NCBI GenBank assembly: GCA_934276635.1
Contig: CAKQTH010000001.1
Coordinates: forward strand, 200,098-264,097
Source of the DNA: an uncultured Alphaproteobacteria bacterium
GTDB taxonomy: Bacteria; Pseudomonadota; Alphaproteobacteria; RF32; CAG-239
Length of the DNA stretch: 64,000 nt
Direction: 5' to 3'
Made by a program: the position numbers and the translations under genes. Of this stretch, positions 3,374 to 64,000 are shown piece after piece (position 1 is the stretch's first letter; each line of letters starts with the position of its first letter). The notes below the pieces were generated by a model, which was not told where the DNA came from, did not search any database, and saw only the letters and a program-made list of their open reading frames with translations.

Positions 3374-4507
3374 GTGATAAATCCATATGTTATGATGAAG
3401 AATATGAAAAAACTTAAAGCTCTGTCTCTGGTTGCGTTGCTTTGGCCGCTGAGCCTTGCCGCACAAGATTTTGCCGACATTGTCAACAATGCGGAAGATG
3501 AGATGTTTGCCGAAGATACATCTGATTTCGGCGATGAAACCGTAACCGAACAGGTTGCCGAATTCAGCTCCGAAAATCAGCCGGCGGAAACTTTGCCAAC
3601 CGCAGGAACCGAAGATAAAAGCTCAACGGCCGAAGAGCCGAAAGCAACAGCTCCGGCAAAGCAGATTGTGCAGATTGACGATGATGACGAAGATACAACA
3701 GTCGACGCTTCTGCCTCGCTGACGGAAAACCTGAACAAATCAGGCTCCGGCGACGATATATTGCCGACATCTTCTTCAGATAATTCTCCGAATCAAAACT
3801 GGGTTGACAAGCTGATTTCTTCCGGAAAAGCAAAAAAGAGCGGAGAAAAAGAAGGTCCTCTTTCCGAAATGTTGGAAACTTCCCGTGCCACTATTGTTCG
3901 AACCCGCTCAAATGCATCTGTTTTTGACATTTCTGGCGTAATGCTCAGAATGAATCTTCTTCAGGCGGAAGAGGCCTTAAGAAAAAGAGGATACAAAAAA
4001 GTTTCACAAAAAATGGAAATTCCGAACTTTATAAAATGGCGTAATGAAGAACTTTGCCGAGGCAGCGGCGTAGTCGGATATGAACGACTAGCAAACTGCG
4101 TTGTTCAAAAGGCCAAAAAAGAAAATTATGAATATGTCGAAACCGCAAAATATGCGAAATATGACACAAAAGAAAGTATGGAAATTAAGCTGACCAGCAC
4201 ATTTACGCAAAACAAAATCTACAAAATTTCATATAAGAGCGAGGCTGCGCTTGTCCGCGGCTCAAGCCAAAAATCCGCGTATTTGCGCAATATCAAAGTT
4301 TTTGATTTTTGGAAAAAAGTTAATCAAAAATACGGGGCGCCCGACAATCGAGACGATGTAATCTGGGGAATGGGCGGCAACAAGCCGTATATGCAGGGGG
4401 CGACCGGCATGCTGGTTCTTGAAGATCCAATGCTGCGCGAACTTGACTATACCAGAATGTCGCGAGAAGATCAAAGATTTATGAACACAAATTTATACAG
4501 TTTTTAG
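3374..4507 (+). CDS. secreted protein with acidic low-complexity N-terminal half and an unknown C-terminal domain
   Basis: Signal-peptide-like N-terminus (KKLKALSLVALLWPLSLAAQ), a D/E/S/T-rich region, then a globular C-terminus. No family recognised. ChpT starts 9 nt downstream. Confidence 0.55.
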   Translation: MINPYVMMKNMKKLKALSLVALLWPLSLAAQDFADIVNNAEDEMFAEDTSDFGDETVTEQVAEFSSENQPAETLPTAGTEDKSSTAEEPKATAPAKQIVQIDDDDEDTTVDASASLTENLNKSGSGDDILPTSSSDNSPNQNWVDKLISSGKAKKSGEKEGPLSEMLETSRATIVRTRSNASVFDISGVMLRMNLLQAEEALRKRGYKKVSQKMEIPNFIKWRNEELCRGSGVVGYERLANCVVQKAKKENYEYVETAKYAKYDTKESMEIKLTSTFTQNKIYKISYKSEAALVRGSSQKSAYLRNIKVFDFWKKVNQKYGAPDNRDDVIWGMGGNKPYMQGATGMLVLEDPMLRELDYTRMSREDQRFMNTNLYSF

Positions 4508-4516
4508 GGTGTTATA

Positions 4517-5128
4517 ATGAACAATATGCAAATTTCTCAGGTGGTATGTACGCGTATCAGCCACGATATTGTCGGAAATGTCGGCGCGGTTGCCAATGCG
4601 CTGGAGCTTTTTGAAGACGATGACAACGACTTTTTTGAAGATATCAAAAAAATTTTGGGCGTAAGTTCACGCGTTTTGGCCGCCAGAATGAAGTTTTTTC
4701 GTATGGCTTTCGGGCTTGAAAATGCGGCGCTGAAAAATTCCGAAACGGTTTTTGCCTCCATAACCGATTATTTGCACACACTCTCCGGTGAGGCCGGAAA
4801 AATCTCGTTTGAGGCAGAAAATATTATGCCGGAGCATAACAGAATTTTGATGCAGGCTGTTATGATGATGGCCGATTTGATGCCGTACGGCGGCCAGATT
4901 AAATGCTGCTATGAAAACGAGCGCTTGTGGGTGGCGGCAAATTGTGCGCGAGGATATTCGCAAGACAAAATTTCTGCGGTAAAATCAATCATATCAGGAG
5001 CAAAAGATTTTGATGCCGATGCGCAATATGCCCACATTTTGAGCCTTGTGGAAGAGACCAAAGACGAAAATAAAATGAAACTGATGACAATCGACGGGCC
5101 GGCGCTTGTCATCGGCAAAAACCTGTAA
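4517..5128 (+). CDS. chpT: ChpT-family histidine phosphotransferase (HPTransfase domain)
   Basis: RISHDIVGNVGAVANALEL with the FFRMAFG motif matches the ChpT phospho-His region LCHD...FxRxAFG. Confidence 0.55.
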   Translation: MNNMQISQVVCTRISHDIVGNVGAVANALELFEDDDNDFFEDIKKILGVSSRVLAARMKFFRMAFGLENAALKNSETVFASITDYLHTLSGEAGKISFEAENIMPEHNRILMQAVMMMADLMPYGGQIKCCYENERLWVAANCARGYSQDKISAVKSIISGAKDFDADAQYAHILSLVEETKDENKMKLMTIDGPALVIGKNL

Positions 5129-11095: not shown

Positions 11096-11620
11096 TTGCA
11101 CAATACTTTTTCAAAAGAAGATGCGAAGGCGTTCAAAGTCGGCCTTTTTGTGTCGATAATTTTGCTTTTTGCCGGCGTTTATTTTATAAATTCGCAGCAG
11201 AAGTTTGCAAAGGTAGATGACGGCAAATATTATCAGCTGAAGGCCAGATTCGGCCGCACTGACGGGCTTTTGACCGGCGATTTGGTTCGGCTTTCCGGCG
11301 TTGATGTCGGCAGAGTTATCAAGGCGGACCTAGATGACGAGTTTAAGGCGGTGTTGACCTTAGAAGTCAAAGATGATGTCAAAATTCCGGACGACAGCAG
11401 CGCATCGATTGTCAGCTCGGGGCTTATGGGATCAAAATATATTGAAATAGATGTCGGAAGTTCGGAAGATTATCTTGAACCGGACGGAGAATTTGAATAC
11501 ACGCAGGACGCAATGGTTATAGAAGAGTTGCTTGACCGCATTGTCGGAATGGGCAAAACCAAGCGCCAAAAACAAGAAAATTCAGCAGAAGAAATATTCG
11601 AAGGAGAAGATGATGAATAA
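11096..11620 (+). CDS. mlaD: MlaD/MCE-domain protein (paralog 1), TTG start
   Basis: N-terminal TM helix plus a single MCE domain (GDLVRLSGVDVGRV). AGGGAG RBS before the TTG start. Confidence 0.7.
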   Translation: MHNTFSKEDAKAFKVGLFVSIILLFAGVYFINSQQKFAKVDDGKYYQLKARFGRTDGLLTGDLVRLSGVDVGRVIKADLDDEFKAVLTLEVKDDVKIPDDSSASIVSSGLMGSKYIEIDVGSSEDYLEPDGEFEYTQDAMVIEELLDRIVGMGKTKRQKQENSAEEIFEGEDDE

Positions 11621-12074
11621 AAAACCGATAGAAACCATTATGGGCCTTGTTGTATTGATTGTGGCCGGATTGTTCCTGCTGTTTGCCTATCAGGTATCCG
11701 ATCTGCAGGTGGTTAAGGGCTATGAAATCCGCGCAGATTTTTCAAAAGTCGGCGGTTTGAGCGTCGGTTCCGATGTTCGCTTAAACGGCATCAAGGTCGG
11801 CACGGTTGTTTCGCAAAAACTCAACAAAGACACATATAATGCAGAAGTCACGCTCAGTCTTTCTCCTGATTTGAAATTGCCGAAAGACAGTGAAATTGCG
11901 ATTGCTGCGGACGGTCTTTTGGGCGACAAGTTTATCAAAATCGAGCCGGGTACATCAACAGAGTTTTTTGCAAACGGCGATACCGCAACAAATGTAAAGA
12001 ATTTCAAAACTTTGGAAGATATGGTCGGCGAAATTATCTTTATGGTGACGGACAATGGGGATAAAAAAGAATAA
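11610..12074 (+). CDS. mlaD: MlaD/MCE-domain protein (paralog 2)
   Basis: TM helix plus MCE domain (DVRLNGIKVGTV). The start ATGATG overlaps the stop of paralog 1. Confidence 0.7.
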   Translation: MMNKKPIETIMGLVVLIVAGLFLLFAYQVSDLQVVKGYEIRADFSKVGGLSVGSDVRLNGIKVGTVVSQKLNKDTYNAEVTLSLSPDLKLPKDSEIAIAADGLLGDKFIKIEPGTSTEFFANGDTATNVKNFKTLEDMVGEIIFMVTDNGDKKE

Positions 12075-62248: not shown

Positions 62249-62325
62249 GGGCCCTTAGCTCAGTTGGTTAGAGCAGACCGCTCATAACGGTCCGGTCGTT
62301 GGTTCGAGTCCATCAGGGCCCACCA
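62249..62325 (+). tRNA. tRNA-Met or tRNA-Ile2 (anticodon CAT; G1-C72, so not an initiator)
   Basis: Manual fold: acceptor GGGCCCT/AGGGCCC, D-arm GCTCAGTTGGTTAGAGC, anticodon stem GACCG/CGGTC, loop CTCATAA, T-loop TTCGAGT with one U-U mismatch in the T-stem, and encoded CCA. Confidence 0.8.
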
Positions 62326-62326
62326 T

Positions 62327-62360
62327 ATAAAAAGAGGATGTTTCTATCCTCTTTTTTTTA
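62327..62360 (+). terminator. rho-independent terminator after the tRNA
   Basis: aagaggat-gtttct-atcctctt hairpin followed by TTTTTTT. Confidence 0.55.
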
Positions 62361-62511
62361 TGCATTGATGAGGCCTTAAGAGCCCAGTGTTTGCGGGGTT
62401 TGTGAGATTTGGCGTTTCAATTATGATGTGAGCATACGAACCACCGCTAAGAGATTTTTCATTAAAATTAAGAAAAATAGATACTTTTGGATTGACCTCG
62501 TCCAAAACAAA

Positions 62512-62540
62512 AAACGCCTATTTTAGGCGCTTTTCTTACC
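62512..62540 (-). terminator. rho-independent terminator serving the minus-strand island genes
   Basis: aacgcctA-TTTT-aggcgctttt hairpin with a T-run on the minus strand, about 75 nt downstream of the stop at 62615. Confidence 0.4.
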
Positions 62541-62614
62541 ACCCAACCTCGCACCCTATATCCATGACCAGACTAAAGTTGCGAACCATAGACCACTTGG
62601 GTGAGAGTTTAAAA

Positions 62615-63433
62615 TTAATTAGAACATTTTAATGTATAAACAAAGTTTTCATCTTTGAAACATCTGTTCCATTGGCACAGAAAAATATTTTCAAATTTTG
62701 AGGAGAATAAGTGTTTTTTTAATGAATTGGTAAAATGACAATAATTACCTGTTAAAACATCAGGTATATATACCAGAAGGAAACATTTATCACATTTTTT
62801 AAGGTAATTAGTAATTTTTTTATTTTTACTATCAATTGTTTCTTGAAGTTCATCAAGCGGATCTTCTTTACTATAACACTCGTTATTTACATTACAATCA
62901 AATTTGTTATCCATATTGGGGATAGCGGTAATTGTGATATTAAAATATTCATCCTGGACTTGAATTGTTTCTTTAATAAGATGTGGCCATTGTTTTAACT
63001 TTTCGACATTTCTATCAATAATTCGTTCTATACCTGATTTAATTTCATTTTTATTATAAATATCCCAAAATCCAGGATTATAAATAACATCTAAAACTTC
63101 TTGGCGTGTTCGAGCACACCATTTTCTTTTATCCCATTTATCAATTAAAACAGATATGTTAAGATTATGCTTCTTTTGCGCATATGCACGTGTTTGGTTG
63201 CCAATACTCATAAGGTGTTGAAGAGCTCGTCCATGTTGGCTTTTGACGATAAACTTCGTTATTTCCAACCCAATTGTTTGATTATCTTCTGTAGTAAAAA
63301 CAAAATCAGGATGTTCAGTCTCTATGTGTGACTTTATTTTATTTTCTTTATGCCAATTTTTACCTTCATCTGAGGCTAAAAAGTAATTCAAATATTCCCA
63401 TTCTTCTGCTTTTTTGTTTTCATTTTTAGACAT
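62615..63433 (-). CDS. hypothetical protein with a putative PD-(D/E)xK nuclease motif (272 aa)
   Basis: HPDFVF...GLEITKF matches the PD-x(n)-ExK spacing. Very AT-rich. 2 nt downstream of the Mrr-like gene, so probably an operon. Confidence 0.45.
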   Translation of the reverse strand: MSKNENKKAEEWEYLNYFLASDEGKNWHKENKIKSHIETEHPDFVFTTEDNQTIGLEITKFIVKSQHGRALQHLMSIGNQTRAYAQKKHNLNISVLIDKWDKRKWCARTRQEVLDVIYNPGFWDIYNKNEIKSGIERIIDRNVEKLKQWPHLIKETIQVQDEYFNITITAIPNMDNKFDCNVNNECYSKEDPLDELQETIDSKNKKITNYLKKCDKCFLLVYIPDVLTGNYCHFTNSLKKHLFSSKFENIFLCQWNRCFKDENFVYTLKCSN

Positions 63434-63435
63434 AT

Positions 63436-63858
63436 TTATTCCTTGTCTACAAAATATACAGGGCTAATTGGCATTAAAGCCTTATCCTCATCTTTCATTT
63501 TTTCGTAAAACTCCTGCCATAACTCAATAAAACGCTCTAAATCTATCAATTCTATATGAGGGCTGGAGTGCTTAAATTCTTTTAAGGCATCAGAAGCAAA
63601 ACCTGAAATTGATATAAAAACACCAATATCATTTGTAGTTAAAATACCTTTTAATTGTCTTAGTCCTTGCGATGTTGCTTTTGTATCCTGACGATATTTT
63701 ATCTGAATTTTAATGTGAGGTGTCGTGCTCCCAATAGGGTCTTTATATGCTATAACATCAACACCACCATCTTTACCTTTAGGCGCAATAAAAGGCGTAT
63801 AATATCCCATGCCTCTAAACAGTGCGCCGCATAATTCTTGAAAACTGTATGGGGTCAA
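63436..63858 (-). CDS. Mrr_cat-type restriction endonuclease catalytic domain protein (N-terminus apparently frameshifted; TTG start in the ORF track)
   Basis: GKDGGVDVIAYKD...HIKIQIKYRQ...GVFISISGFASDA...IELIDLERFIELW is collinear with the Mrr catalytic domain (DGGIDG...QAKRY...GVFITTS...LIDGERL). Confidence 0.6.
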   Translation of the reverse strand: MTPYSFQELCGALFRGMGYYTPFIAPKGKDGGVDVIAYKDPIGSTTPHIKIQIKYRQDTKATSQGLRQLKGILTTNDIGVFISISGFASDALKEFKHSSPHIELIDLERFIELWQEFYEKMKDEDKALMPISPVYFVDKE

Positions 63859-64000
63859 ATTCTTCTAATATAAATTTTGTAAACGATTGATTTGCTTTAG
63901 CTCTGGCATCATCTAATAAAGATGATACTTTCTGAGTAACTTCTTCAATTTGTTCATCAGGCACATCTTTATTGCTTGTTTTGGTAAGCGTTTCTTTTTT
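63845..64000 (-). pseudogene. upstream partial ORF running off the window end, in a different frame from the Mrr_cat ORF (putative N-terminal part of a frameshifted Mrr-like gene)
   Basis: The minus-strand frame reads ...DVPDEQIEEVTQKVSSLLDDARAKANQSFTKFILEEFDPIQF then stops. The sequence FDPIQF would splice naturally onto QELCGALFRGMGY of the Mrr_cat ORF after a 1-nt shift at a T4 run. Confidence 0.3.

Follow-up and report, generated by a model that had tools for sequence, protein, structure and literature searches.

The end of a 64,000-nucleotide (nt) stretch of contig CAKQTH010000001.1 from assembly GCA_934276635.1 (the whole stretch is hereafter called the window) carries, directly 3' of a transfer RNA (tRNA) gene with anticodon CAT, a gene for an orphan protein of 272 amino acids (aa) and a frameshifted mrr restriction gene. 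Positions 62326-64000 are best explained as the tRNA-proximal end of a horizontally acquired defense island in an uncultured gut alphaproteobacterium, and we hold this explanation, with all its parts taken jointly, with somewhat better than even confidence. Within the island mrr is knocked out, and the 272-aa protein appears from its sequence and predicted fold to represent an undescribed, defense-associated, nuclease-like family that is without annotation in any library searched.

The composition of the segment sets it apart from the remainder of the window. Its GC content was 0.320, as against 0.433 +/- 0.019 (minimum 0.381) for windows of the same size over the rest of the sequence, a drop of about 6 standard deviations. 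The break is sharp, and abnormal composition begins at the 3' end of the tRNA gene. Contigs identical to the window originated from human gut metagenomes. One of these, L002 (ENA ERZ27286970, k141_1263885; L and P numbers denote the contigs or loci and the proteins compared), matches the window at 100% identity along 11,386 nt and carries the sequence 9.4 kb further; L001, a contig from a Hadza gut sample, is 99.3% identical. On the extended contig the GC content was 0.351 for the island and 0.438 on the core side, and the low-GC island is at least 11 kb long. The AT-rich stretch after the tRNA and the variable, tRNA-adjacent defense island running past the window, both proposed in a first-pass annotation of the same DNA, were thus borne out, and the two minus-strand open reading frames (ORFs), the HPDFVF...GLEITK motif (residues 41-60 of the 272-aa protein) and the terminator hairpin between the ORFs and the tRNA are all present as it had described them.

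Starting at the tRNA, the island genes are, in order, the 272-aa gene, mrr, an ORF of 90 or 129 aa (the gene call differs by contig), an HTH_17 gene, a Schlafen/AlbA_2-type gene, a type I restriction-modification (R-M) operon and an AAA_15/AAA_21 ATPase gene. The HTH_17 protein has 54 aa, an excisionase-type fold and a mad1-like match in PADLOC (2e-10). The Schlafen/AlbA_2-type protein has 487-491 aa and combines SLFN_AlbA_2, HATPase_c_4 and Fic-like_C in its L001 version. The R-M operon consists of hsdM, a 200-aa ORF, hsdS and hsdR (PADLOC methyltransferase 1e-152, restriction endonuclease 9e-129), and the furthest island gene read is the start of the 561-aa ATPase. The 200-aa ORF between hsdM and hsdS had no family match; this ORF and the HTH_17 and 487-491-aa genes that precede the operon were recorded at 4200-4815 and 6265-7930 of L001/L002 (about 65.5-69.2 kb of the extended window). 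Elsewhere the same Mrr block occurs with different cargo and with different genes between mrr and the tRNA, and three other core contexts also have Mrr islands flanked by a tRNA of this kind.

The island may be an integrating element or a recombination hotspot that includes the tRNA. The first-pass annotation had suggested that an integrase might lie just outside the window; none was found in the 11 kb beyond the tRNA. Nor was a direct repeat of the tRNA 3' end, which it had proposed to look for: a search of those 11 kb for copies of 16-25 nt with up to two mismatches gave only the tRNA itself and AT-rich chance matches, the far boundary lying outside that stretch, and a general repeat search of the island gave nothing further. 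DNA shared between two contexts spans not just the island but also the tRNA and some 75 nt on its upstream side, a pattern that could equally reflect a recombination hotspot or an integrating element. With neither an integrase nor a tRNA repeat in these 11 kb, site-specific integration can be proposed only tentatively. An empty site was not found in any close relative, and GTDB genomes scanned with the 269-aa flank protein gave no match; the identical flank protein occurs on island-bearing contigs only. Among relatives of the DnaE protein (at most 74% identity, all from metagenome-assembled genomes of uncultured gut or rumen Alphaproteobacteria), tRNA(CAT) was not found downstream of dnaE except in L029, about 9.5 kb away. 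P0308, a related protein considered in tracing the far boundary, sits in an unrelated island. Short DUF2924 ORF fragments lie between mrr and the tRNA in L100-L104 and L115 (about 11346-11821), and the motif TTTCCGGCACTTTCCGATTTTTCATCAATCT is conserved in the same islands and also 3' of tRNA(CAT) in the more distant relative L029. DUF2924 accompanies serine recombinases, and the fragments and the motif could be what is left of a recombinase module or of the end of an element.

The mrr gene is broken. The Mrr_cat-encoding ORF at 63436-63858 on the minus strand, which had been taken for a separate gene, makes up the 3' portion of a longer mrr, so that only the Mrr likeness of that earlier assignment stood. 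The frame that is open from the window end (…FTKFILEEFDPIQFSRIMRRTV, followed by a stop codon) terminates at 63815, and the Mrr_cat frame (LTPYSFQELCGALFRGMGYY…) starts one base out of register; deletion of one C of the CCCC run joins both frames (…ILEEFDPYSFQELC…). The start of mrr, seen on L001 and L002, lies about 339 nt past the window end, and the full gene corresponds to a 300-aa protein with Mrr_N and Mrr_cat domains. The repaired protein matched Pfam Mrr_cat (PF04471) with an E-value of 2.6e-20 (73 bits, cut-off 21), its residues 45-160 aligning to positions 1-114 of 115, and the PADLOC model PDC-S02 with an E-value of 3.5e-39 (model positions 154-330 of 334), both matches running across the frameshift site. 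Owing to the additional C, Mrr_N is encoded just beyond the window in another frame than Mrr_cat and the two do not form a single polypeptide; intact alleles carry both. The segment GKDGGVDVIAY...IKIQIKY is encoded in the window and contains the residues matching D190, D194, Q212 and K214, which are invariant in an alignment of the Mrr family. The frameshift lies ahead of these catalytic D...(Q/E)xK residues, and translation should therefore not reach them.

Intact 300-aa mrr alleles, 98-99% identical, were found on dozens of other contigs, and the sole insertion or deletion relative to them is the C gained after nt 485. The insertion falls at codon 163 and the shifted frame stops after 11 codons, which would leave the window lineage able to produce only a fragment of at most 173 aa without the catalytic domain. 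CCCC was present in all eight contigs of the window lineage, which come from different samples and assemblers, and CCC in none; the lesion is therefore not a sequencing error, and mrr is knocked out in this lineage. Two further knock-outs were seen in related islands, a G deletion at nt 131 in L112-L114 and a K89stop substitution in L115 and L116. The same orthologue has thus been inactivated three independent times.

The 272-aa gene that follows mrr is intact and identical across samples, and it travels separately. Relatives were examined in 32 loci, with precomputed Pfam annotation for some and ORF clustering for the rest. A low-molecular-weight phosphatase gene (LMWPc) lies within 2.5 kb upstream in 13 of the 32 and is directly adjacent in 10; it marks a second, different defense hotspot in related alphaproteobacteria, which also holds AbiE, Abi_C, AbiJ, reverse transcriptase, GmrSD-type and type I R-M genes. 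The LMWPc gene encodes 152-160 aa and was recorded in L123-L130, L132, L134 and L158 (at about -480 from the family gene) and also in L011, L016, L019, L107 and L111. Where it and the 272-aa relative are apart, genes for reverse transcriptase, SLFN-type helicase, chloramphenicol acetyltransferase, type I R-M or AbiE stand between or beside them. Eight loci (L117, L145, L147, L148, L151-L154) place a relative of about 50% identity in a lambda-like prophage with GpA-type terminase, portal and ParB-like nuclease/methyltransferase genes, and in most of these a tyrosine integrase is found about 3.4 kb away. The L117 prophage has a tRNA-Thr alongside, and one prophage contig is in IMG/VR. In the remaining contexts the gene follows a 611-aa protein without assigned function or precedes hsdM. 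DNA similarity between contexts is 67-75% and is limited to the ORF itself, and the slot after mrr holds unrelated genes elsewhere, so that the 272-aa gene is an independent single-gene cassette that landed downstream of mrr in the window lineage.

Annotation libraries gave little purchase on the protein. There was no match for it in Pfam, NCBIfam or PADLOC. A word-indexed search returned 38 relatives, each at least 51% identical and none with an annotation, and a profile search of 1.84 billion representatives returned 410 clusters at E <= 1e-3, mostly of 240-290 aa (the figure of about 410 refers to clusters at 50% identity). Searched against Pfam, 53 diverse members had no consistent family match; the family profile found no relative among PDB sequences and no relationship in PADLOC. 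The phage family phrog_35865, of unassigned function, matched 25 of the 53. Although these members differ to the point of sharing about 20% identity, all have D43, G55 and K203, K203 being the sole invariant lysine, and E11, P42, F44, E57, I200, Y210, C214 and L219/L220 are at least 90% conserved. An aspartate at strand 2 and an acidic residue in strand 3 are thus both kept: an AlphaFold2 model built from the family alignment (pLDDT 89.5, pTM 0.79) puts D43 where strand 2 begins and E57 within strand 3. The order of its elements (helix 4-30, strand 33-38, strand 44-48, strand 53-60, helix 66-89, strand 94-100) resembles the classical restriction-endonuclease-like core, and the model may be called nuclease-like. 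The first-pass annotation had tied its proposal to a predicted nuclease fold, and because the model is nuclease-like the proposal survives on this point. The profile searches it had suggested gave an Mrr_cat match for mrr and no PD-(D/E)xK family match for the 272-aa protein.

Based upon the model, the 272-aa protein would be a metal-dependent nuclease with a PD-(D/E)xK-like core, in which the metal is bound by E11 of helix 1, D43 at the beginning of strand 2 and E57 of strand 3, and K203, on a later helix, substitutes for the missing ExK lysine. It would work alone against incoming DNA. As no cognate methyltransferase is linked to the gene, action that is modification-dependent or otherwise self-sparing seems more likely than that of a classical type II enzyme. 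We put the chances of an active stand-alone nuclease with a role in defense at about even. The broader proposal, that the protein is the founding member of a new family of anti-phage nucleases that act alone, a family in which the lysine has been relocated to a distant helix (K203) and which moves as a single-gene cassette between defense hotspots and prophages of gut bacteria, is tentative and rather doubtful. Several results count against a nuclease. The canonical ExK lysine is missing, position 59 being an invariant threonine (T59) in the close family, and K60, on which the ExK motif of the first-pass annotation depended, varies among K, R, Q, N and E even in close relatives, so that this motif had to be given up. 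At the sequence level no link to Pfam PD-(D/E)xK families or to Mrr was found (probability 0.2 in an hhalign comparison with the Mrr family), a Foldseek search of the model against PDB and BFVD gave no significant match, and a contribution of K203 to the active site is conjecture.

A nuclease-like fold that is inactive, serving as a DNA-binding, regulatory, sensor, immunity or antitoxin-like factor without a catalytic lysine, is an alternative that we regard as unlikely, since E11, D43, E57 and K203 are kept even at about 20% identity, as is usual where an active site has been preserved. Lysine relocation is, moreover, documented in the PD-(D/E)xK superfamily. It is improbable that the protein instead serves a conventional R-M system as its endonuclease (of type II, or as an accessory to the neighboring type I system) and is shielded by a nearby methyltransferase. 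By ORF clustering, 8 of the 32 loci have hsdM-type genes and 7 have hsdS-type genes, the gene in L014 lies 93 nt upstream of hsdM, and in the chimeric ORF P0037 the C-terminal end of an HsdR runs into the final third of a family member, yet type I R-M systems are common in any defense island and no methyltransferase is consistently adjacent. Ten loci have the LMWPc phosphatase upstream and eight lie in prophages beside regulatory genes, and the methyltransferase nearest to the window gene is about 3.5 kb off, past mrr and three other genes. P0037 (290 aa) consists of type I HsdR C-terminal domains (T1R_D3-like, T1RH-like_C) followed by the ~88 C-terminal residues of a family member that shares 84% identity with the window protein, and is presumably the product of a deletion that fused two adjacent genes.

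The first-pass annotation had paired Mrr with a second nuclease. A dedicated two-gene defense system of two cooperating nucleases would be in keeping with ORFs that share a strand and one terminator and lie 2 nt apart, and with the small PD-(D/E)xK-like gene (147 aa) that begins 3 nt after mrr in other Mrr islands. Comparative data have largely refuted it, however, and we consider it quite improbable. An Mrr-type ORF stands beside a 272-aa relative only in the window lineage (L001) among the 32 loci, and none is listed near a relative outside that lineage in the nine context types with precomputed Pfam annotation. In the window lineage itself mrr is knocked out and its supposed partner is intact. 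Alleles of mrr that are 96-99% identical precede unrelated genes, encoding either the 147-aa protein (PDDEXK_5, E 2.2e-5, below the Pfam cut-off) or a 94-aa helix-turn-helix protein, and the DNA homology of other Mrr islands to the window stops 15-20 nt inside the 272-aa gene. As a homologue of the 272-aa protein, the 147-aa protein was rejected (BLASTP E 1.6). A different doubt concerns the lesion in mrr, which might be a switch, through phase variation or programmed +1 frameshifting, that allows some full-length Mrr to be made. The change lies within a homopolymer (CCC to CCCC) and the downstream frame keeps every invariant Mrr_cat residue. Such a switch is nonetheless very improbable: known contingency tracts are far longer than 4 nt, the eight lineage contigs are uniform, and the unrelated lesions in the two other lineages point to plain loss. 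Given so short a run and the absence of mixed alleles among the contigs, we prefer to read the lesions as simple loss of function that has recurred.

In domain architecture (Mrr_N PF14338 plus Mrr_cat PF04471; PADLOC candidate PDC-S02) and in length (300 aa) the repaired gene is the same as E. coli Mrr and Mrr-like enzymes. Like those systems, it is found in a laterally acquired island by a type I hsd operon and encodes the D/Q-x-K invariants; unlike them, it is inactivated by the +1 C, with other lesions in two sister lineages, and its specificity for modified DNA is putative. Tesfazgi Mebrhatu et al. (2011, PMC3152355) showed that Mrr becomes genotoxic when a foreign Mod methyltransferase is present and that one of the two, usually the methyltransferase, is subsequently lost. 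In the present islands type I and Dcm methyltransferases are shuffled and mrr has been lost at least three times; here it is mrr, not the usually lost methyltransferase, that disappears, and there is no consistent link to cargo. No pattern across the compared islands ties the knock-outs to methyltransferase cargo, which is similar despite mrr status in L101 (intact) and L112 (broken) and in L106 (intact) and L115 (broken). Because of this lack of consistent pairing, a methyltransferase conflict as the cause of mrr loss is offered as a hypothesis.

The closest known relatives in kind of the 272-aa protein would be members of the PD-(D/E)xK phosphodiesterase superfamily, such as PA4535/1y0k, CdiA-CT toxins, Cap4 and the nuclease domains of Shedu SduA and Hachiman HamA. 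The island as a whole is like tRNA-linked genomic and defense islands in its low GC content, its position directly 3' of a tRNA, its HTH_17/excisionase-like gene and its mosaic defense cargo, which differs between near-identical islands. It is unlike integrative tRNA islands in having no integrase and no tRNA-derived repeat in 11 kb and in sharing the tRNA and its promoter region along with the island. Island and Mrr enzyme are textbook material, a typical tRNA-linked defense island. The 272-aa family is sizeable and unannotated, and its company (type I R-M, Abi and reverse transcriptase genes, accessory regions of prophages) makes it a reasonable candidate for a single-gene defense nuclease. 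The threefold loss of mrr in near-identical islands with shuffled methyltransferases may serve as a natural example of the cost of a modification-dependent nuclease amid changing methylation. Neither overturns current understanding, and the advance is modest.

Table 1. Coordinates of the features discussed (window positions unless a contig is named).
Feature	Position	Strand	Basis or remark
tRNA, anticodon CAT; island boundary	62249..62325	+	ARAGORN; Rfam tRNA 65.8 bits on identical locus
Terminator hairpin of the tRNA, GAGGAT-GTTTCT-ATCCTC then T8	62334..62351	+	Read from sequence
Intrinsic terminator of the mrr/272-aa unit, AAAAGCGCCUAAAAUAGGCGUUUUUU	62509..62534	-	Fold, pattern scan, sequence
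66-nt stem-loop with 8-bp closing helix, 3' untranslated region of the 272-aa gene	62539..62604	-	Minimum free energy structure
272-aa orphan protein gene, predicted PD-(D/E)xK-like nuclease	62615..63433	-	
mrr/272-aa junction, AAGGAATAAATATG	63431..63444	-	Sequence
Frameshifted mrr, 3' 565 nt (type IV restriction endonuclease, Mrr_N + Mrr_cat)	63436..64000	-	Three-frame translation
C4 run with 1-nt insertion (intact alleles CCC)	63851..63854	-	Alignment to intact alleles
mrr orthologue (intact)	L101 10001-10903		
mrr orthologue	L112 9801-10702		
mrr orthologue	L115 9626-10528		

At the junction of the two genes a Shine-Dalgarno-like AAGGA overlaps TAA, the stop codon of mrr, and the 272-aa gene opens with its ATG 2 nt further on. 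This layout fits an operon with translational coupling, in which mrr and the 272-aa gene would be co-transcribed as far as the shared terminator and AAGGA would deliver ribosomes to the 272-aa ATG. The terminator hairpin, with a 12-bp stem, an AAA loop and a U-rich tail, separates the stop codon of the 272-aa gene from the tRNA. The 66-nt stem-loop is situated between the same stop codon and the terminator; the 117-nt stretch covering both had a folding z-score of -2.9, and the stem-loop had no Rfam match. An Rfam scan of the island gave the tRNA as its sole match. A hairpin equivalent to the tRNA's own terminator, with a different sequence, lies 3' of the tRNA in L100-L108.

The tRNA was labeled tRNA-Met by ARAGORN. 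Its best E. coli match, 85.7% identical over 76 nt and present in all 5426 genomes, is annotated in RefSeq as tRNA-Ile, likewise with anticodon CAT, and on this ground the gene probably encodes a lysidine-modified tRNA-Ile2 rather than the elongator tRNA-Met.

Between L001 and the window there are 78 single-nucleotide polymorphisms (SNPs), of which 77 fall within 3.4 kb of mutL-pgi (about 53.6-57.0 kb of the window; 16404-19819 of L001). With regard to selection on the 272-aa gene, strain-level SNPs indicated that the contigs are a single clone save for this tract. The cluster looks like a homologous-recombination tract between otherwise clonal strains, as judged from the alignment, and the other ~8 kb of L001, island end included, contain one difference from the window.

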